Source of the DNA: an uncultured Acidobacteriota bacterium
GTDB taxonomy: Bacteria > Acidobacteriota > UBA6911
Assembly (NCBI GenBank): GCA_963843575.1
Contig: CAWJKZ010000013.1
Location: 640,001 to 704,000 of the forward strand
Direction of reading: 5' to 3'
DNA length: 64,000 nt
Shown here piece by piece: positions 54,279 to 64,000 of this stretch. The notes beneath the pieces were generated by a model that searched no databases, had not been told where the DNA came from, and saw nothing but the letters and a program-made list of their open reading frames with translations. A program made the translations under genes and the position numbers. Within the stretch, counting starts at the first letter, position 1. Each line of letters opens with the position of its first letter.

Positions 54279-55574
54279 ATGATCGACCGCTATTTTCCCG
54301 CAGACATGGCCGAGATATGGTCGGAAGAAAACAAGTTCCGTGCGTGGCTCCGGGTCGAGGTGGAGACCTGCAGGATCCTTGCCGAGAAGGGCTGGATCCC
54401 GGCCGAGTCATTCGCGCACATCGAGAGCAAGGCCGGGTTTTCCCTCGAACGCATCCGGCAGATCGAGAAGGTGACGCACCACGACCTGATCGCCTTCACG
54501 ACCAGCGTGGCCGAATGCGTCGGCCCCGACTCCAGGTACATCCACTGGGGGCTGACCTCGACGGACGTGGTCGACACCGCGCAGGCCTTGCAGCTCCGCG
54601 CCGCCAACGAAATCCTGCTCGTCGAGCTCGACCGCCTGAGGGAGGCAATCGGCCGCCGGGCGCAGGAGCACCGCCGAACCCTCATGATGGGGCGCACCCA
54701 CGGGGTGCACGCGGAAGTCACCACCTTCGGGTTGAAACTGGCCGTGTGGTACGACGAGATGCGCCGGAACAGGGAACGCCTGGCGCGGGCCGCGGAACGC
54801 ATGCGGGTAGGCAAACTGTCGGGTGCCGTCGGGACGTTCGCACACCTCGGCCCGGACGTCGAGGCGCGCGTCTGCGAAAGGCTCGGCCTGAGAGCGGCGC
54901 GGATCTCGACCCAGACCCTGCAGCGTGACCGCCACGCCGAATACGTCTCCACCCTGGCCATCGTGGGGGCTTCGCTCGACAAGTTCGCCACCGAGATCCG
55001 CCACCTGCAGCGGACGGAAGTGCGGGAAGTGGAGGAGCCCTTCGCCGCCGGCCAGAAAGGCTCCTCGGCGATGCCGCACAAACGCAACCCGGTTAAGTGC
55101 GAGCAGGTCTGCGGCCTCGCCCGGCTGCTGCGCGGCTACGTCGTGACCGCGCTCGAGGACTGCGCCCTCTGGCACGAGCGAGACATTTCGCACTCGTCGG
55201 TCGAGCGCGTCATCCTGCCCGATTCAACGGCGGTGCTCTGCTATATGCTACGCACGATGACCTTTATCATCTCAGGACTGCTGGTCTACCCGGAGAGGAT
55301 GCTGCACAACATGGAGCTTACCCGAGGGTTGGCCTATTCAGGGCAGCTGCTGCTCGAGCTGACGCGGAAAGGCGTCAGCCGCGAGGACGCCTACGTCTGG
55401 GTGCAGCGCTGCTCGATGAAGGTCTGGAACGAGGACAAGGATTTTGTGCTGGCGGTCGAGGACGACCCGGATATCGCACGAGTGCTGACACCCGACGAGA
55501 TCCGCGCCGCCGTAAACCCGGAGCTGCAATTGCGCAACGTCGACGGCGTCTTCGCCCGCGTGTTCGAGGGCTGA
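54279..55574 (+). CDS. purB: Adenylosuccinate lyase
   Basis: [38 protein letters not shown]. Confidence 0.97.
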
Positions 55575-55598
55575 ACCGGCCGGGGCGCCTTTTAATCA

Positions 55599-55627
55599 TT
55601 GCATTTCCGGCCCCCAGTTCCTATCAT
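55599..55627 (+). promoter_or_regulatory. sigma70 promoter for the rpmH operon
   Basis: TTGCAT-N17-TATCAT. Confidence 0.6.
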
Positions 55628-55659
55628 ACTGGTTTTCACATTTTCAGCCGGAGACGTAC

Positions 55660-55803
55660 GTGGCAAAGAGGACGTTCCAGCCCAACAACAGCAAACGAAA
55701 GAAAACCCACGGCTTCAAGTCCAGAATGGCGACTAAGGGCGGCCGGCTCGTTTTGAAGAGACGGCGGGCCAAAGGCCGCAAGAGGCTGACGGTGAGTGGC
55801 TAA
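55660..55803 (+). CDS. rpmH: 50S ribosomal protein L34 (absent from the ORF track)
   Basis: Hand translation: [47 protein letters not shown]. Confidence 0.97.
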
Positions 55804-56224
55804 CACGGCCAGTGAGGGATTTCCCCGGCGGCACCGTATCGTGCACGGGGCGCACTACCGGGCAGTCTATGCCGCCGGCACGAAACTCCATTCCGAGAGG
55901 TTTGTGCTCTTCGGCTGCGAAAACAGCCTGAGTCATCACCGCCTCGGAATAACCGTGTCGCGGAAGGTCGGGGGGGCCGTGGTCCGCAACCGCGTCAAGC
56001 GCCTTTTCCGAGAGATTTTTCGCAAGTCCTTCGCCGAGATTCCTGGCCACTTCGATTTTGTGGTAAACGCCAGGCGCAGCTGCGCTGGTGTGTGCTATCT
56101 TGTTCTTAAGGAAGAGTTTACGGCTACGGCGCGGAAGATCTGCGTCCGGGGTAACCTTCAACCCCCGGCGGGTGCTGGAGACGGCAATGAAGGCGATGAT
56201 CCTTCTGGTCCTGCGGGGCTATAA
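55796..56224 (+). CDS. rnpA: Ribonuclease P protein component
   Basis: [21 protein letters not shown] motif; synteny after rpmH. Confidence 0.95.
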
Positions 56225-56396
56225 GCGATTCGTATCCCCCCTGTTGCCCCGGGCGTGCCGTTTCGAGCCGACGTGCTCGGTGTATGTGTATCAGGCCATA
56301 GAAAGGAAAGGAGTCCTCAAGGGACTCTGGCTGGGGATCCGCCGACTCGTACGGTGCCACCCGTTTTGTGCTGGCGGGTACGATCCGGTTCCCTAG
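56187..56396 (+). CDS. yidD: Membrane protein insertion efficiency factor
   Basis: YKRFVSP...CRFEPTCS.Y...RCHPF..GGYDPVP. Confidence 0.95.
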
Positions 56397-56413
56397 CGTC
56401 CCCGGACTGACCT

Positions 56414-58105
56414 ATGGAAAAAAGAGCTCTGGCCGCCATCGCACTCTCGATCCTGGTGCTGCTCGCGTTCCGTTACGTCGAGGAGCGGCGGATGGGGGAT
56501 GCCGCCCGGCGCCGGCCTGTCCCCGCCAGGCAGGCGCCCGCATCTCCGGCGGCACCGTCGGTCACCCCTGCCGCCCCGGCAGAGCCGGCAAGCGCCGAGC
56601 AGCCTCCACAGTCAACCGCGGCGGGAGCGGCGGATACGAGCGCCGCCCCCCGGACCGTGACCGTGGAGTCCGACCTCTACCGGGCGGTCCTCGACAACCG
56701 CGGCGCCGTGTTCACGAGCTGGCAGCTGAAGAAGTACACGGGGGCGCGGGGCGAGCCATTCGAGATGGTAGCGGGGGGCAACGGCCCTGAGGCGCGCTTC
56801 CCCGGCACGATCGCCTTCGAGGATGCCTCGGCCTCCGGTACGGCGGCGCGCGAGAACTACGAGGTGGTTACCGAAGGCGGCGGCCCCGGACCCCTCACCC
56901 CACCTGCGACGGTGACGATGCGGTTGCGCCGAGGCGACCTGACCGTCGAGAAGACCTTCCGTTTCGACAAGGACAACTACATAGCCCAGGTGTCGCTGCT
57001 CACCGAGAAGGCCGGGCGCCCTCTTCCGGGACGGTTCATCGTCGGGCAGGATATCGGGCCCGAACACGAACACCTGCTCAATCCCTCGATTCAGCTTTCT
57101 GCCGTCTACAGCCTGGCGGGCAAGGTGCACCGCGAGGCGCCGCCCAAAGACGAGAACGAGATCAAGCCGATCGCGGGCGATGTACGTTGGGCGGGGCTGG
57201 AAATGCAGTATTTCGCGATGCTCGCGATCCCGGCCCAGCCGATCCAGCTCTTCGAGGTACAAAAGAGGCCGATGCAGGCGGTCGGCCTGGACGGCAAAGA
57301 GTTCACGCGGCAATTGGTGCGGGTGACGGTCCCCGAAAACGGTAAGGCGGACTTCCGCATGTACGTCGGCCCAAAGGAACAGTCGTTGCTGGAGAAGGTA
57401 CCCGGGGTCGACCTGTCCGGTGTCATCGACTACGGCATGTTCTCCTTTCTGGTGCGTCCGCTGCTGTTCTCGCTGAAGTGGATCCATCAGTACGTGCACA
57501 ACTGGGGCGCCGCCATCATCCTCCTCACCCTTGCCCTGACCCTACTGCTGTTCCCGTTCCGTCTCAAGCAGATGGCCTCGATGAAGCGGATGCAGGTGAT
57601 CCAGCCCAAGATCAAGGAGATCCAGGAACGCTACAAGAAGTACAAGAAGACGGACCCGAAGCGCGCCGAGATGAACCAGGAGATGATGGCGCTCTACAAG
57701 GAACACAATGTCAACCCGCTCGGGGGGTGCGTTCCGCTCCTGTTGCAGATGCCGCTGCTGTTTGCGTTCTATCAGCTTCTTGCCGTCTCCATCGAGCTGC
57801 GGCACGCGCCGTTCATGCTCTGGATCCAGGATCTCGCCGTCAAGGACCCCTATTACGTCCTTCCGGTCGTCATGGGGATCACGATGTTGGTTTCGCAGAA
57901 GATGACGCCCATGACCCCCGGCACCGACCCGACCCAAGCCAAGATGATGATGTTCATGCCGGTGGTCTTTACCGTCATGTTTTTCAATATTTCCAGCGGC
58001 TTGAACCTGTATTTTCTGTGCAGTAATATCTTCCAGATCGCTTTCCAGAAAGTGGCGGAGAGGTGGTTAGGTGACCGACAATCCCCTCGCAAATCCAGAG
58101 CCTGA
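56414..58105 (+). CDS. yidC: Membrane protein insertase
   Basis: N-terminal TM, periplasmic domain, NWGAAII, NPLGGC.P.LLQMP, WIQDL..DPYY. Confidence 0.97.
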   Translation: MEKRALAAIALSILVLLAFRYVEERRMGDAARRRPVPARQAPASPAAPSVTPAAPAEPASAEQPPQSTAAGAADTSAAPRTVTVESDLYRAVLDNRGAVFTSWQLKKYTGARGEPFEMVAGGNGPEARFPGTIAFEDASASGTAARENYEVVTEGGGPGPLTPPATVTMRLRRGDLTVEKTFRFDKDNYIAQVSLLTEKAGRPLPGRFIVGQDIGPEHEHLLNPSIQLSAVYSLAGKVHREAPPKDENEIKPIAGDVRWAGLEMQYFAMLAIPAQPIQLFEVQKRPMQAVGLDGKEFTRQLVRVTVPENGKADFRMYVGPKEQSLLEKVPGVDLSGVIDYGMFSFLVRPLLFSLKWIHQYVHNWGAAIILLTLALTLLLFPFRLKQMASMKRMQVIQPKIKEIQERYKKYKKTDPKRAEMNQEMMALYKEHNVNPLGGCVPLLLQMPLLFAFYQLLAVSIELRHAPFMLWIQDLAVKDPYYVLPVVMGITMLVSQKMTPMTPGTDPTQAKMMMFMPVVFTVMFFNISSGLNLYFLCSNIFQIAFQKVAERWLGDRQSPRKSRA

Positions 58106-58565
58106 CCGTGGCATCGAGGCGACCGCGCGGGACGTGGAAGCGTTCTGCAGCCGGCTGGTGAGCGTGATGCGTCTGGAGCTCAATACCTCCGCCTCTGAGG
58201 AGCAGGGCACAATCCGGGTGAATTTTTCGGGCCCCGACAGGCCCATCCTCCTGTCCGGCAACGCGCAGGTGCTCAACTGCATGGAGTATCTGGTAGGCCG
58301 CACGTTCCGAACCGGCAGGGGGGCGCGTATAGCCTCGATCCTGCTCGACTCGGACAGTTACCGCCAGCACCGCGAAGCGGAACTCGTCCTGCTGGCCCAG
58401 ATGGCGTCCCAGAAGGTGATAGCGCAGAAAAAACCGCTGACCCTGCAGCCGATGACCCCGCGCGAGCGCCGCATCGTCCACCTGGCGCTCGCCTCCGTCG
58501 CGGGGGTCCGCTCCGAGAGCGATGGGGAGGGGGACAACCGGAGCGTCACCATCTTCCCCGGATAG
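58071..58565 (+). CDS. jag: Jag/KhpB-like RNA-binding protein (KH-like plus R3H)
   Basis: PMTPRERRIVHLAL...SESDGEG..R R3H domain; synteny yidC-jag-mnmE. Confidence 0.85.
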   Translation: MTDNPLANPEPDRGIEATARDVEAFCSRLVSVMRLELNTSASEEQGTIRVNFSGPDRPILLSGNAQVLNCMEYLVGRTFRTGRGARIASILLDSDSYRQHREAELVLLAQMASQKVIAQKKPLTLQPMTPRERRIVHLALASVAGVRSESDGEGDNRSVTIFPG

Positions 58566-58682
58566 GAGCACCCGTCCGGGAGCCCGGGAGGGGCATCGCC
58601 CCGGGACGGCGTCGCGGACGCAAAGCTTACCTCACCTCTCCCGCTCCCCGTGTCCGCCGCTTGTTTTTGGCCCGCACCTGAG

Positions 58683-60068
58683 ATGCACGATTTGAACGAC
58701 ACAATCTGCGCCCTATCGACTGCGCCCGGTCGCGGGGGCATCGCACTGGTGCGCATGAGTGGCAACCGTAGTTTCGAGTTCCTGGACCGGGTGTTCGCGC
58801 CCGAGCGCGGGAGCGGGGGCCCGGCGGTGCCCCGTTCGGCCGTCCTCGGCCGAATTGTCGACCCTCGGTCGGGGGACGAGGTCGACCAGGTGCTGGCGAC
58901 ACGCTTTCCAGCGCCCCACTCGTACACGGGCGAGGACGTCACCGAGATCTCGCTGCACGGGAGCCCTGTGCTGGTCGCCGCGGTGCTGGACGTGCTTTGC
59001 GGCTGCGGCGCGCGCTTGGCGGGCCCCGGGGAATTCACGATGCGGGCATTCCTTCACGGCCGGCTCGACTTGGCGCAGGCGGAGGCGGTGAGGGACATCG
59101 TGGACGCGACCACGCTCTACCAGGCTCGGGTCGCGTCGCGGCAGCGCGACGGGGAGCTCTCGAACGCCCTCGCGCCGTTGAAGGACCTGCTGGTCAACAT
59201 CGTCGTCCAGCTCGAATCCGCGGTGGAGTTCGTGGAGCAGGATCTGGTCACCGAGTCGCGCGAGGCGCTGGCGGCGCGCCTGGAAGAAGCGCTCGTGTGG
59301 ACCTCGGGGTGGATCGACTCGTTCCGGCGCGGGCGGATCGTGCGCGAAGGTTTCAGCCTGGCGGTCGCCGGACGCCCGAACGTCGGGAAGAGCAGCGTGT
59401 TCAACTCCCTGCTGTCGCGGGACCGCTCGATCGTGACCGAGCTGCCGGGCACGACGCGGGACCTCGTGTCGGAGGACACGAGCCTGCGGGGGATTCCGGT
59501 CCGGCTGCTCGACACGGCCGGGGTGCGGGATTCCGAAGACCGGATCGAGCGGCTCGGGGTGGACCGGAGCTACCGGGCGATGGCCGATGCGGATGCGGTG
59601 CTGCACGTGGTGGATGCGAGCGCGGCTCCGGAGGGGGAAGACGAGCGGCTGCGCGCCCACCTTTCCGGGCTGCCGTGCATCGTGGTATTCAACAAGGCGG
59701 ACCTGCCGAGCGCGTGGCCGGATACCGAACGGGAGGGGTTCGGGCTCCCCAATCCCTGGGTCACCGTCTCGGCCCTGAGCGGCGCCGGCATGGACGGGCT
59801 GCGAGACACGATCCTGCGGCTCCTGTGCGGCGACGCGGGGGCGTCCCAGGACGGTCCCTTGGTCACAAACCTGCGTCATTGCCGGTGTCTCGAGGCGGTG
59901 CTGGAGCGGGTGGGGCGCGCGCAGCAAGCCCTGCGCGCCTCGGCCTCGGAGGAGCTGGTGCTGGTCGACCTGCACGCCGCGCTGAGTGAACTGGGCGCCA
60001 TAACGGGCGAGACGACCGTCGAAGACCTGCTCGGGGAAATCTTCTCGCGCTTCTGTGTCGGGAAATAG
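58683..60068 (+). CDS. mnmE: tRNA modification GTPase
   Basis: [37 protein letters not shown]-terminal FCVGK. Confidence 0.97.
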
Positions 60069-60069
60069 G

Positions 60070-61962
60070 ATGAAGAGCCGTTTTCACGAGTCTTTCGACG
60101 TGGTGGTCGTCGGCGCGGGTCACGCCGGGTGCGAGGCCGCCGTGGCGTCGGCGCGCCTGGGGGCGGACACGGCGCTTTTCACGCTTAACCTGGACCTGGT
60201 GGCGCAGATGTCGTGCAACCCGGCCATCGGCGGGATCGCCAAGGGGCATCTCGTCCGGGAGATCGACGCCCTCGGCGGCGTCATGGGGGAAGTCGCCGAC
60301 CGGACGGGGATCCAGTTCCGGCTGCTGAACCGCAGCCGCGGCCCTGCCGTCCAGGCGCCGCGCTGCCAGTCTGATAAGTCTCGATATCGCAATGAGATGC
60401 GCAGATTATTGGAGGCGCATAACAACCTCCGCCTGCGCCAGTGCGAGGTGGTCGGTCTGGCAGTCGAGGGCGGGGGCGTGGCGGGGGTCGAACTCCTGGA
60501 CGGGAGGCTGGTCGGGGCGCGCGCGGTGGTTATCACGACCGGGACCTTCCTGAACGGGCTGGTACACGTCGGGGACCGGCGTTATCCCGCCGGGCGCAAC
60601 GGCGAGTCGCCGTCGGTGCTGCTCGGGGAGTGGCTGCGCCAAGCCGGTTTCCGGGTGGGGAGGCTGAAGACGGGGACGCCGCCGCGGATCGACGGGCGGA
60701 CGATCGACTACGGCCGGTTCGAGGAGCAGGCGGGGGATCCCGAGCCGACCTTCTTCTCGTTTTGGAGCGAGGCGGTAGCATTACGACAAGTGTCATGTTA
60801 TGTTGGATATACGGGTGGAAAGATGCACGACGTGGTGCGGCGCAACCTGGGTCGTTCCGCGCTGTACGGCGGTGCGATCAGGGGGATCGGGCCGCGGTAT
60901 TGTCCCAGCATCGAGGACAAGGTGGTGAAGTTCGCCGACAAGGAGCGGCACCAGCTTTTTCTGGAGCCGGAGGGGTTGGACACGCACGAAGTGTATCTGA
61001 ACGGGCTGTCGACCAGCATGCCGGCGGAGGTGCAGCAGGAGATGCTCGAGGCGGTGCCGGGGCTGGAGGGGGCGAAGATGATCCGGCCGGGGTACGCGAT
61101 CGAGTACGACTTCATCGATCCGACGGAGCTGATGCCGTCGCTGGAGACCAAGAGGGTGGCGGGGCTCTACTACGCGGGGCAGATCAACGGGACGACCGGG
61201 TACGAGGAGGCGGCGGCGCAGGGGCTGGTCGCGGGGATAAACGCGGCGCTGAAGGCGGCAGGCAGGGATGCGGTGCACTTTCCGCGGGAGGGGAGCTACA
61301 TCGGGACGTTGTTGGACGACCTGGTGACGCGAGGGGTGGACGAGCCTTACCGCATGTTCACGTCGCGGTCGGAGGTTCGTTTGCTGCTGCGGATCGACAA
61401 CGCAGACCGGCGTCTGACGCCGACGGGTCACGCCCTGGGGCTGGTGCCGGAGGCGCATTTCCGGAAGTTCCAGGAGAAGTACGAGCAGGTGGAGGGGGCT
61501 CTCCGTTTTCTGCGCGGGCGTCGTTACGACCCGGGCGAGGCGTCGTGCCCGGAGCTCGAGGCGAAGGTGGGCGGGGCCGGGGCGAAGGGGGCGACGCTGG
61601 AGCAGCTGCTGCGGCGGCCGGGGGTGGTGCTGGACGATTTGGATCCGGTGTTGCGGAGGCACGGCGTGGTGCTGTCCGGGGCGGCGCGGTGCGCGGTGGA
61701 GGTCGAGGTGCGCTACGACGGTTACATCGCGCAGCAGCGCCGGGACGCCGAGAGGATTGGCCGTCTTGCGGCGCGGCGGATCCCGGAGGATCTCGACTAC
61801 GGGAAGATCGAGGGGCTGAGCCGCGAGATGCGGGAGAAGCTGGTGCGGGTGCGGCCGCGGGACCTCGGGATGGCGGCGCGGATCCCGGGGGTGACGCCGG
61901 CCGCCGTATCGATCCTCAACGTGCAGATCGAGATGCGCCGGCGCAGGCGGGGTCCGGAGTAA
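60070..61962 (+). CDS. mnmG: tRNA uridine 5-carboxymethylaminomethyl modification enzyme GidA
   Basis: [53 protein letters not shown]. Confidence 0.98.
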
Positions 61963-61970
61963 GGGGGGCC

Positions 61971-62624
61971 ATGGACGCGGCGGAGGGACTGGAGCGGCTG
62001 ATTGCAGGGGCGGGGGTGGATGCGGCCGCCGGGGAGCGTCTGAGGGTTTACCTCCGGCTGCTGCTGAAGTGGAATGCGCGGCTTAACCTGACGGGCCGGA
62101 CCGACTGGGAGGGGCTCGGGCCGCACTTCGGCGAGGGGGTATGGGCGGCGGCGCTCGGGAGGTGGGAGCCTGCGCTTCACCTGGACATCGGGAGCGGCGC
62201 GGGATTCCCGGCGCTGCCGATGGCGGCTTTGCGGCCGCGGGGGCGCTTCGAACTGGTGGAGGCTCGGGCGCGCCGCTGCGTGTTCCTGGAGGTGGCGGCG
62301 CGGGAGCTGGGGCTGACGGGCGTCCGGGTGTGCCAGCTGAGGCTGTCGGACTACCTTGCGGAGAACGCGGCGGGCGGCTGGGATCGCGTCAGCTGGAAAG
62401 GGGTGCGGCTCGGCGCGCGGGACGCGGATGGGCTGTTGCGCCGGGGGGCGCCCGGGGTGGAATTCTGGCTCTTTCACGGCCGGGAACTCCCGGTCGAGGA
62501 GCCTGAGGCGTGGCTGCGGGCCGTGCGGCTGACGCGCCGGGTTAGCTTCCCCGGCAAGGCTGGCTGGTTCCTGTCGATCTACCGGCGGCAGCCGGACCTT
62601 CCTGTTTCACGTGAAACAAGCTGA
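61971..62624 (+). CDS. rsmG: 16S rRNA m7G527 methyltransferase GidB
   Basis: WNARLNLT, LDIGSGAGFP; synteny mnmG-rsmG-parA. Confidence 0.9.
   Translation: MDAAEGLERLIAGAGVDAAAGERLRVYLRLLLKWNARLNLTGRTDWEGLGPHFGEGVWAAALGRWEPALHLDIGSGAGFPALPMAALRPRGRFELVEARARRCVFLEVAARELGLTGVRVCQLRLSDYLAENAAGGWDRVSWKGVRLGARDADGLLRRGAPGVEFWLFHGRELPVEEPEAWLRAVRLTRRVSFPGKAGWFLSIYRRQPDLPVSRETS
62603..62618. promoter_or_regulatory. parS: parS centromere site 1 (perfect)
   Basis: TGTTTCACGTGAAACA, canonical palindrome, inside the rsmG 3' end. Confidence 0.93.
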
Positions 62625-62640
62625 ACTTCACGAAACGGAC

Positions 62641-62671
62641 GCGCGCGGGGGGCGCCCCGCCGCGCTTTTTT
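62641..62671 (+). terminator. Intrinsic terminator after rsmG
   Basis: GC-rich stem GCGCGCGGGG/CCCCGCCGCGC followed by T6. Confidence 0.6.
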
Positions 62672-62686
62672 GCTTCACGTGAAACA
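62671..62686. promoter_or_regulatory. parS: parS centromere site 2 (one mismatch)
   Basis: TGCTTCACGTGAAACA upstream of parA. Confidence 0.85.
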
Positions 62687-62733
62687 ATTCCCGCGCAAAG
62701 TGTGCTATTCTCCGGCCGAGCGCGCGCGACGCC

Positions 62734-63509
62734 ATGGCCAAAATCATCTCCATCACGAACCAGAAGGGGGGCGTGGGCAAGACCACCACGGCCATCAACC
62801 TCGGCGCCGCGCTCGCCTGCGCCGACATGCGCGTGCTCATCGTCGACACCGACGCCCAGGCCAACTGCACGAGCGGGCTCGGCTTCGCCAAGGGGGGGGG
62901 CGCAAGAGCATCTACGACGCGCTCATCCGGGAGGAACCGCTCGAGCGCCTGCTCGTCGACACCGAACTGGACAGCCTGAAACTCGTCCCCGCCGACCGCA
63001 GCCTCACCGGGGCTGCCATCGAGATGATCGAGCTTCCCGACCGGGAGATGATCCTGAAGCGTCTGCTGCAACCGCTCCTCCACCGCTTCGACTTCATCCT
63101 GATCGACACCCCCCCGTCGCTCAACATCCTCACGCTGAACGGGCTCGTCGCCGCGCACTCCGTCCTGATCCCGATACAATGCGAGTACTTCGCCCTCGAG
63201 GGGATCTCCGACCTCATGGACACGCTCGCCCGCGTGCGCCGCACCCTGAACCCCTCCCTCGCCGTCCAGGGGATCCTCCTGACCATGTTCGACGAACGGA
63301 CCAACCTCAGCGCGCAGGTCCGGGCCGACCTGCGCAAGTTTTTCCCGACCCAGATGCTGCAGACCGTCATCCCCCGCAACGTGCGGCTGGCCGAGGCTCC
63401 GAGCTTCGGTAAGCCTATAATGCTCTATGACATACGCTCAAAGGGCGCCGACAGCTATATCGCCCTCGCGAAGGAAATCCTGAACCATGAAAAAAAAGGT
63501 CTTGGGTAG
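62734..63509 (+). CDS. parA: Chromosome partitioning ATPase ParA/Soj (frameshift in a G9 run)
   Basis: [43 protein letters not shown]. Confidence 0.95.
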
Positions 63510-64000
63510 AGGGTTGGAAGCGCTGATCCCGGAAGTCGAACGGGCCGAGCCCGCGACCTCGGACATCGACCTCGACCGGATCACCCCCAACCCGGAGCAG
63601 CCGCGCCTGCATATCGACGACGCCCGGCTCGAAGGGCTCGCCGCCTCGATACGGGAAAACGGCGTCCTGCAGCCGATCCTCGTCCGCCCCAAGGGGGACG
63701 GCTACGAACTCGTCGCCGGTGAACGCCGCGTCGCCGCCGCGCAGCGCGCCGGACTGCTCAAAATACCCGCCGTCGTGCGCAGCGTCCCCGACGAGCGGCT
63801 CCTCGAGCTCGCCCTCGTCGAGAACATCCAGCGCGAGGAGCTCAACCCCATCGAGGAGGCGCAGGCCTACCAGCGGCTCGCCGAGGAGCTCGCCATCACG
63901 CAGGAACAGCTCGCCGCCCGCCTGGGCAAGGAACGGAGCACCGTCGCCAACGCCCTCCGGCTCCTCAAACTCCCCAAGACCGTCAGGGAACTCGTCGCCT
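63487..64000 (+). CDS. parB: Chromosome partitioning protein ParB (truncated by window end)
   Basis: Hand translation: [14 protein letters not shown]...PNPEQPR...GVLQPILVR...VAGERR...ENIQREELNPIEEA, HTH region. Confidence 0.96.
   Translation, partial: MKKKVLGRGLEALIPEVERAEPATSDIDLDRITPNPEQPRLHIDDARLEGLAASIRENGVLQPILVRPKGDGYELVAGERRVAAAQRAGLLKIPAVVRSVPDERLLELALVENIQREELNPIEEAQAYQRLAEELAITQEQLAARLGKERSTVANALRLLKLPKTVRELVA

Follow-up and report, generated by a model that had tools for sequence, protein, structure and literature searches.

The closing kilobases of a 64,000-nucleotide stretch of an uncultured Acidobacteriota genome (G000:C13:640001-704000; this whole stretch is called the window) carry a pair of parS sites, and codon choice reverses at that pair. 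The genes before it, mnmG and rsmG, are rich in G-ending codons, and the genes after it, parA and parB, in C-ending ones. Is this reversal written by the centromere, or do two differently composed operons meet where parS lies? A sequence-only reading of the window had taken it for a possible undescribed layer of centromere organisation. We observed that the reversal is real, is the strongest of its genome and, in its strong form, belongs to one genus; centromeres in general probably do not share it. The reading that we favour, with a confidence that stays a little below even, is that the flip is the border of two neighbouring operons at opposite extremes of codon composition, with a bias that follows coding sense and with parS incidental.

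The switch is large and sharply placed. In 2-kb windows, the GC skew was +0.145 at 59001-61000, +0.222 at 60001-62000 and +0.191 at 61001-63000, and it lay between -0.063 and +0.064 in the remaining windows of the stretch. At 300-bp resolution, the skew climbed from ∼59,000, peaked at +0.339 (61550-61849), stood at +0.215 at 62300-62599 and at +0.005 at 62450-62749, and then reached -0.282 at 63050-63349. It is +0.2 to +0.34 across positions 59,200-62,600, and the change to negative values comes no more than ∼150 bp from the parS pair. The two illustrative lines counted by hand in the sequence-only reading were exact (34 G and 15 C at 61561-61620; 10 G and 29 C at 63061-63120). The same reading had the G excess building from mid-mnmE; a weaker bump is indeed present in the 3' half of that gene, but the clear rise starts only ∼300–500 bp into mnmG. 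On the other side, the C-rich zone takes in a bactofilin gene and a thiL-like gene that lie beyond the window, and reaches ∼67,300 (window numbering). The skew is back at baseline within ∼3.5 kb to the left and ∼5 kb to the right of parS.

We ranked the switch against the source genome, G000 (6.68 Mb in 27 contigs, 64% G+C), the one genome to which the whole-genome analysis was applied. Its assembly has indel errors (in parA, tuf and the thiL-like gene), and genes were taken from a simple caller based on open reading frames (ORFs) and third-position G+C content (GC3), which made 4,172 calls covering ∼73% of the genome, with some genes broken or missed. The standard deviation (SD) of the 3-kb skew was 0.037 over 13,220 windows; this locus reached 0.213, and one other region was higher. 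Switches were scanned as 2.4 kb on the left minus 2.4 kb on the right, using either raw skew (D) or third positions (D3). The strongest switch of G000, with 21,838 positions scanned, is at C13:702600, which is parS, with a D3 of 0.63 (5.7 SD; runner-up, 0.46) and a raw D of 0.35 (runner-up, 0.25). For third-position skew, mnmG ranks 4th from the top among the 3,259 ORF-based genes that measure 600 nt or more, and parB is one of the 14 lowest. When ranked by the G-versus-C index at four-fold sites (genome mean -0.03, SD 0.11), mnmG (+0.49) comes third in the genome after two tuf copies, and parB (-0.50) is second lowest. The flip at the parS pair therefore lies far outside gene-to-gene variation. 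The cumulative skew is nearly flat over the 830-kb contig.

The genes of the region are all on the + strand, in the order rnpA, yidD, yidC (56414-58105), jag, mnmE, mnmG, rsmG, parA and parB. The G-ending excess starts weakly in mnmE (58650-60068; NCBIfam TIGR00450/NF003661), with a four-fold index of +0.18 in the 5' half and +0.32 in the 3' half. Its core is mnmG (60055-61962; TIGR00136, E = 7.8e-245), where the third-position skew is +0.30 and the index of successive thirds is +0.21, +0.69 and +0.60. The gene rsmG (61971-62624; TIGR00138) is also G-rich (index +0.50, third-position skew +0.35), and parS1 (62603-62618), a perfect palindrome of sequence TGTTTCACGTGAAACA, lies within its last codons. 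The 110-bp gap from the rsmG stop to the parA start holds a terminator-like, GC-rich hairpin with a T run (62645-62672, + strand; one site found against 0.5 expected in shuffles), which ends the mnmE-mnmG-rsmG unit. Next to it is parS2 (62671-62686; TGCTTCACGTGAAACA), with one mismatch relative to parS1. C-ending codons then prevail in the Soj-type parA (62734-63509; four-fold index -0.42 in the N-terminal piece and -0.22 in the C-terminal piece) and in parB (63487-64323, the window ending at 64000; TIGR00180, PF02195 and PF17762; third-position skew -0.34). Past the window end are the gene for a bactofilin of 150 aa (C13:704344-704796, that is 64344-64796 in window numbering; PF04519, E = 5.6e-28; four-fold index -0.30, third-position skew -0.25) and the thiL-like gene of the AIR-synthase (AIRS) family (C13:704877-705762), which appears as two ORFs with the N-terminal and C-terminal AIRS domains and has indices of -0.49 and -0.25. 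An AT-rich gap of 500 bp (∼65,800-66,270, window numbering) separates it from a methylmalonyl-CoA mutase gene with an index of -0.20. The bias thus changes sign at the border of a transcription unit that ends in a terminator-like hairpin.

The locus has the features of a chromosomal ParABS system, namely 16-bp palindromic parS sites of the TGTTNCACGTGNAACA type beside parAB, a ParB with its N-terminal domain and helix-turn-helix, and a ParA with NCBIfam ParA-family matches, a KGGVGKTT N-terminus and a Walker ATPase (in a broken frame). The closest named relatives of ParB are from Acidobacteriota metagenome-assembled genomes. When the whole of G000 was searched, parS1 and parS2 were the only sites with at most 2 mismatches to the motif. 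ParB spreads from parS by ParB-CTP sliding, with loading of SMC, and the few-kb width of the two zones is within the range of ParB spreading. The window starts 1.7 kb after the dnaA gene, which has DnaA-box-like sites next to it; parS is thus ∼63 kb from the likely oriC. No DnaA box (at most 1 mismatch) was found near parS, between C13:672,920 and 712,000. The flip is therefore separate from oriC, a point in favour of the sequence-only reading.

Replication-associated GC and AT skews change sign at oriC and at the terminus. The parS switch resembles them in that one strand has G>C and T>A and its complement follows past the switch point, most strongly at silent sites. It differs in being local (∼2–5 kb per side and not replichore-wide), in having an amplitude ∼10 times that of the replication skew of this genome, and in having terminus polarity although it is 63 kb from dnaA and oriC. 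Neither an oriC nor a terminus was found near parS, and the baseline is regained within kilobases; dif itself was not searched for.

The signal is found at synonymous third positions, where all eight four-fold codon families shift together. Codon positions 1 and 2 of the zone genes are within ∼1–1.5 SD of their orthologs, except for position 1 of parA, an exception that arises partly from synonymous Leu and Arg choices. Third positions on the top strand of the left zone were A.044, C.319, G.552 and T.085, and those on the bottom strand of the right zone A.051, C.274, G.582 and T.093, compared with A.084, C.445, G.379 and T.092 on the coding strand of the genome. On both sides, the strand that points 5' to 3' at parS is enriched in G and depleted in C and A. 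The A-ending share of two-fold purine-ending codons is 13% on the left (20/154) and 40% on the right (45/112), against 26% in the genome, and the right unit (parA, parB, bactofilin and thiL-like genes) has more A-ending Lys and Glu codons. The mirror-symmetric, few-kb shape centred on parS, which had been suspected from a look at the window, is present with its A/T component included. Every skewed stretch is coding, because the apparent intergenic DNA to the right of parB is the C-ending bactofilin gene. We had considered this stretch as unskewed intergenic DNA that would speak against a mutational cause, and rejected it for that role once the gene was recognised. In G000 and in G001, a separately assembled relative of the same genus, the zone genes are all on one strand, with no non-coding DNA within the zones.

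The pattern arose in place, with no sign of gene transfer. The similarity of MnmG (four segments) and of ParB, MnmE and YidC (two segments each) to 15–19 family relatives equals the mutual similarity of those relatives (ratios 0.98–1.06). As G001 has the same profile, an assembly chimera, which would have undone the sequence-only claim, is ruled out. Within 80 kb of context in G001, parS is the top switch (0.41, SD 0.125), with another locus close behind at 0.39. Protein identity between G000 and G001 is 81–93% for the proteins of this region and 69% for RsmG. The two genomes share 57–78% of four-fold sites against 39–53% expected at random, and therefore much of the pattern is inherited. G000 goes beyond G001 on both sides, the four-fold G/C differences being 36 versus 17 in mnmG and 5 versus 13 in parB.

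How widespread is the switch? The gene order yidC-jag-mnmE-mnmG-rsmG-parS-parA-parB is kept in all the 20 sampled family genomes, and in 16 of them the rsmG-parA gap holds a parS that fits the pattern exactly. Only G001 has a switch as strong as that of G000; it is moderate in two others (G010 and G004) and near zero in the rest. Per genome, the class has only one or two parS sites; the pattern is matched exactly in 73/102 and a reversed control pattern in none. In several families, parAB lies between two parS sites 1.2–2.6 kb apart, and a yidC-mnmE operon converges on parB and does not precede mnmG. We surveyed 40 extra parS-centred loci of the class, which together with the family loci gave 56 evaluable ones, including G000 and G001; relatives are non-independent samples in this survey and in the pooled one below. 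The other 54 loci had a mean D3 of +0.059 (SD 0.127), with eight at or above +0.2 and one at or below -0.2. With frames defined by tblastn in 57 other genomes of the class, the left-minus-right difference at third positions had a mean of 0.092 (SD 0.13, maximum 0.45) and was at least 0.3 in four, compared with 0.63 in G000 and 0.41 in G001.

A weak tendency in the same direction is thus class-wide. In the 57 genomes, coding-strand third positions lean by +0.09 in yidC, +0.07 in mnmE, +0.05 in rsmG and -0.125 in parA. The right side of G000 (-0.27 and -0.34) is within the class range, the lows of which are -0.42 for parA and -0.45 for parB, and its left side (+0.30 and +0.35) is just over the class maxima (+0.27 and +0.25). 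Left and right values correlate positively over the 57 genomes (rho = +0.34), where a mirror process would give a negative correlation; this reflects genome baselines and not a mirror process. The sequence-only reading had counted against itself the possibility that the skew follows the orthologous genes regardless of parS. It does so in part, as yidC, mnmE and rsmG lean to G-ending and parA to C-ending codons across the class, and on any strand or in any place in one relative (G032, see below), but the strong form is found in the genus only.

Other phyla were surveyed as well. Of 80 ParB-centred loci from many phyla, 36 had a parS-like site, giving 31 evaluable clusters, at which raw D averaged 0.021, while the average of 391 control positions was -0.017. 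When the comparison was restricted to loci with a G+C content of 55% or more, the mean D3 was 0.060 (n = 24) compared with -0.015 in controls (n = 301), and the highest values among the cross-phylum loci were in two Myxococcota (0.35 and 0.28). Profiles stacked on parS across genomes had been put forward as a check of the centromere proposal; they gave little beyond these differences and a weak trend for unrelated genes (see below), and with a single equally strong case among the 20 family genomes the proposal of a general layer of centromere organisation finds no support. A metagenome scan with MnmG added no members of the genus; the relatives that it gave were all distant, with identities not above 67%, and their loci were used solely in a pooled orientation survey of 60 loci. 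A literature search turned up no paper on a parS-centred skew switch or on a compositional trace of ParB spreading, as judged from titles and abstract openings.

Three relatives were considered as further cases and rejected. G032 has the strongest switch outside the genus (D3 0.49). However, around ten genes on both strands are G-/T-rich on their coding strand, parAB is mildly C-rich, and a + strand DAGK-family gene is G-/T-rich where a strand rule set by parS predicts a C-rich one. This gene block therefore indicates that a coding-sense bias of this size exists in the class, and is not a replicate of a strand rule. In G054 and G055, the D3 values (0.18 and 0.28) were no larger than other swings within 60–80 kb. 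G032 has another flip, on C2 (locus L157) at ∼15,500. A divergent gene pair lies there, 7.5 kb from the second parS, and the third-position skew goes from ∼-0.25 on one side to about +0.33 on the other. The polarity of this flip is origin-like, yet there is no dnaA within 100 kb, and our reading of it is a coding-sense bias around a divergent promoter.

The codon usage of G000 gives the background for these extremes. Its 47 tRNA genes form a flat set, each anticodon having a single gene, and the ribosomal protein genes have no G/C preference (indices of -0.4 to +0.2, mean about -0.1), for which reasons strong translational selection on low-abundance enzymes is unexpected. The extreme G-ending gene is tuf, with 150 G, 5 C, 3 A and 1 T at the four-fold codons of one copy; both copies are near-exclusively G-ending. 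The same holds for all the 20 relatives' tuf loci examined (index 0.48–0.98; loci L073-L094 represent G000 and 14 relatives). Such near-exclusive use of G-ending codons in tuf throughout the class, despite one tRNA gene per anticodon, is a codon-usage puzzle whatever the reading of parS. The preference in tuf is for G and then A, which differs from the mnmG zone, where G is up, A is down and T is unchanged. Besides tuf, groEL (+0.33) is among the G-ending extremes, and genes for an outer-membrane barrel, an FG-GAP protein, a transaldolase, CarD and L17 are C-ending extremes away from parS. As ordinary genes occupy both ends, gene-level G-versus-C regimes exist far from parS. Compared with codon bias set by expression, the pattern here is alike in being restricted to synonymous sites, bounded by operons and accompanied by a mild same-gene tendency across the class. 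It is unlike such bias in its flat tRNA dosage, its unbiased ribosomal protein genes and a gradient that starts inside a gene; moreover, the most biased gene, tuf, is G-ending, while parB uses the opposite set.

These data led us to favour the junction of two operons. The upstream unit (the 3' part of mnmE, mnmG, rsmG and the hairpin terminator) prefers G-ending codons in every family, and the downstream one (parA, parB, bactofilin and thiL-like genes) C-ending codons. The bias would act on the coding strand, through selection on codon or mRNA composition or through transcription-linked mutation, and the two extremes would be independent of each other and of ParB. On this reading, parS is present at the flip because it sits in the rsmG-parA gap throughout the class. 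The locus was picked from a very large scan, and a rare coincidence is therefore more likely to surface. A junction of operons explains the match with the terminator and operon border, the restriction to silent coding sites, the class tendency, the rarity in relatives, the G032 block and the positive left-right correlation. Coding-strand following itself is seen in G032; the zone genes of G000 and G001 have a single orientation.

Several observations weigh against it. A junction of independent operons predicts neither the mirror symmetry nor the gradient within a gene. The symmetry extends to A/T, and G001 too has matching sides, at lower amplitude (G.508/.530, C.348/.339). Neither a gene start nor an operon start marks the beginning of the rise, which lies inside mnmG, and in both genomes the skew becomes stronger toward parS. 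The right zone spans functionally unrelated genes, including the mutase gene past the AT-rich gap. The top switch among the 21,838 positions of the genome falls within 300 bp of its only parS pair. The flat tRNA set and the unbiased ribosomal protein genes make strong translational selection on low-abundance enzymes unexpected. At codon positions 1 and 2 of the left zone, G occurs in G000 and not in G001 at 96 sites and the reverse at 66 (p = 0.02). The yidC control (19 versus 24) and the right zone (17 versus 19) have no such shift, and the left-zone excess hints at a nucleotide-level pressure. Finally, in the 60 pooled loci, unrelated genes within 3 kb of parS had a mean of +0.024 when oriented toward it (n = 26) and -0.034 when oriented away (n = 52; p = 0.03, kinship uncorrected), a weak trend in the direction of the sequence-only reading that fades by 5 kb.

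Many of these points would be expected from a substitution bias peculiar to this lineage, strand-asymmetric and anchored at the rsmG-parA gap, where the ParB-parS complex and three palindromes lie within 85 bp. We regard this explanation as possible but rather doubtful. The strand that runs 5' to 3' toward the site would more often be single-stranded on both sides, and would drift to G>C and T>A, the classical signature of single-strand exposure. In one version, rightward forks from oriC, 63 kb upstream, would pause at the gap; the exposed lagging-strand template behind the fork would give the left zone of ∼2.3 kb, and an exposed leading-strand template or resected ends ahead would give the right zone of 3–5 kb. 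In favour of such an anchor are the mirror composition with its A/T part and the matched amplitudes of the sides in G000 and G001, the sharp sign change within ∼150 bp of parS at the top-ranked switch of the genome, and a gradient that begins within a gene and climbs toward parS. Since the species split, moreover, both sides have moved together to a greater extreme in G000 than in G001. The G excess at non-synonymous positions of the left zone, the expected weakness of translational selection, the weak same-sign trend of unrelated genes and the mean D3 of about +0.06 in both surveys point the same way. On the other hand, the strong form is found in one genus and is effectively one evolutionary event, and at least 18 of the 20 family genomes of the same architecture are without it. 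The apparent replicate, G032, has a coding-sense and not a strand bias; left and right amplitudes do not covary negatively across the class; and the right zone has no non-synonymous shift. The zones offer neither non-coding DNA nor an opposite-strand gene on which a strand rule could be tested. G rises in absolute terms (.38 to.55) with GC3 still high, and simple C-to-T deamination would need an added GC-restoring force. Most relatives with the same ParABS locus lack the compositional signature, and the titles and abstract openings in the literature search gave no precedent for it elsewhere. That the ParB-parS complex or its palindrome cluster is a recurrent site of fork pausing, uncoupling or breakage in this genus, leaving the strand with its 3' end toward parS single-stranded for a few kb on both sides and so writing the mirror footprint of G>C and T>A at silent sites, is a proposal that we find equally doubtful.

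The remaining explanations have still less to commend them. Transcription-associated strand asymmetry of the non-template strand has reportedly been described by Beletskii and Bhagwat and by Francino and Ochman. The non-template strand of a highly transcribed or R-loop-prone mnmE-mnmG-rsmG unit could drift to G>C and T>A, and dominant antisense transcription across parA, parB, the bactofilin and the thiL-like genes could do likewise to the bottom strand, the two transcripts converging at the hairpin by parS. The coding strand does have G>C and T>A on the left, as in the G032 block (there whatever the gene orientation), with the complement on the right; the border is the terminator-like hairpin, and the AT-rich gap could house promoters. 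However, the sign is the opposite one on the coding strand of the right zone, no RNA run that could attest an antisense transcript is listed for this sequence, the hairpin has no following T run on the bottom strand, and the mutase gene past the gap is C-ending too. High transcription of mnmG and rsmG is not expected, and the ribosomal protein operons, which are surely highly transcribed, are without such a skew, the size of which here is far over theirs. We consider convergent transcription improbable. Oriented G-rich words that steer FtsK, SMC or RecBCD toward parS from both sides, in the manner of FtsK-orienting polar sequences (KOPS) and Chi, are more improbable again. KOPS, recognised by FtsK, and Chi, recognised by RecBCD, are oriented G-rich motifs, and the G-rich strands of KOPS point to dif; here, too, the G-rich strands converge on a defined chromosomal site, and on the toward-parS strands runs of at least three number 197 for G and 78 for C. 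Yet no discrete word is over-represented and the site is a near-origin centromere, not dif. With 300 synonymous-codon shuffles, no 5- to 8-mer exceeded what composition gives (best z = 4.2 among thousands) and no word recurred. Of G-quadruplex-type motifs, the left has two, where the density in the genome predicts 0.16, and the right has none; the shift is uniform across codon families as from a composition bias, and the pattern is missing from most relatives. The selected oriented G-tracts of the sequence-only reading were thus not found, and we take the idea as weakly refuted. Equally remote is the idea that the segments were imported, by horizontal transfer or recombination, from donors of differing codon usage, or that the pattern is an artefact of assembly or sequencing. 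The zone codon usage is atypical for the genome and the assembly has many indel errors, but the protein segments are normally similar to those of family relatives, no sampled relative has a matching codon usage as a donor, and the same profile recurs in G001. Hundreds of in-frame synonymous G/C differences are beyond the reach of indel errors, and this explanation is largely refuted.

The consequences differ with the answer. If parS is incidental at the junction of two operons, its codon usage is heterogeneous to a striking degree but in an ordinary way, and the case warns against taking every local switch of skew for a replication landmark. If the bias were anchored at parS, a bacterial centromere could leave a heritable, strand-asymmetric mutation footprint, and the locus would be a sequence fossil of a conflict between centromere and replication, legible from the genome alone. 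It would then offer a sequence-only readout of the ParB-replisome conflict and a handle on its variation among close lineages.

An overlapping alternative frame of 727 codons (60441-62624, + strand), which runs from mnmG into rsmG, was considered as a gene and rejected, being interrupted by 8 stops in G001 and by 2–42 in other relatives. The alternative frame across mnmG has 6 stops in G000 against a shuffle mean of 12.6 (p = 0.01). The open frame is most likely a by-product of G-rich, T-poor third positions. A search with Rfam over 55000-64000 gave no family at gathering score.

The frame of parA changes at a run of nine G at ∼62892-62900, such that the N-terminal 54 residues and the remainder are in different frames. 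This break is probably a long-read homopolymer error rather than the mark of a pseudogene, because the genome has 16 runs of nine G and other broken genes. Contigs of four DNA runs yielded mostly short conserved motifs from other organisms, and none extended across the parA G run or the parS gap. The thiL-like gene is split in G000 and intact in G001 and G032; its split is therefore probably an assembly frameshift. Both tuf copies (G000:C14:794300-795544, - strand, and G000:C24:247904-249150, + strand) have an in-frame TAG between ...HTHFKA and VYVLSKEEGGRHTPFF..., in an otherwise continuous EF-Tu frame that is open at this point in relatives, and one copy has a later frameshift. The TAG may have come from a mistake in assembly or base calling that was carried over to both repeats, or it may be something stranger. 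The bactofilin gene starts 20 bp past parB and probably shares its operon, a neighbourhood that recalls the link between ParAB and bactofilin known from Myxococcus.

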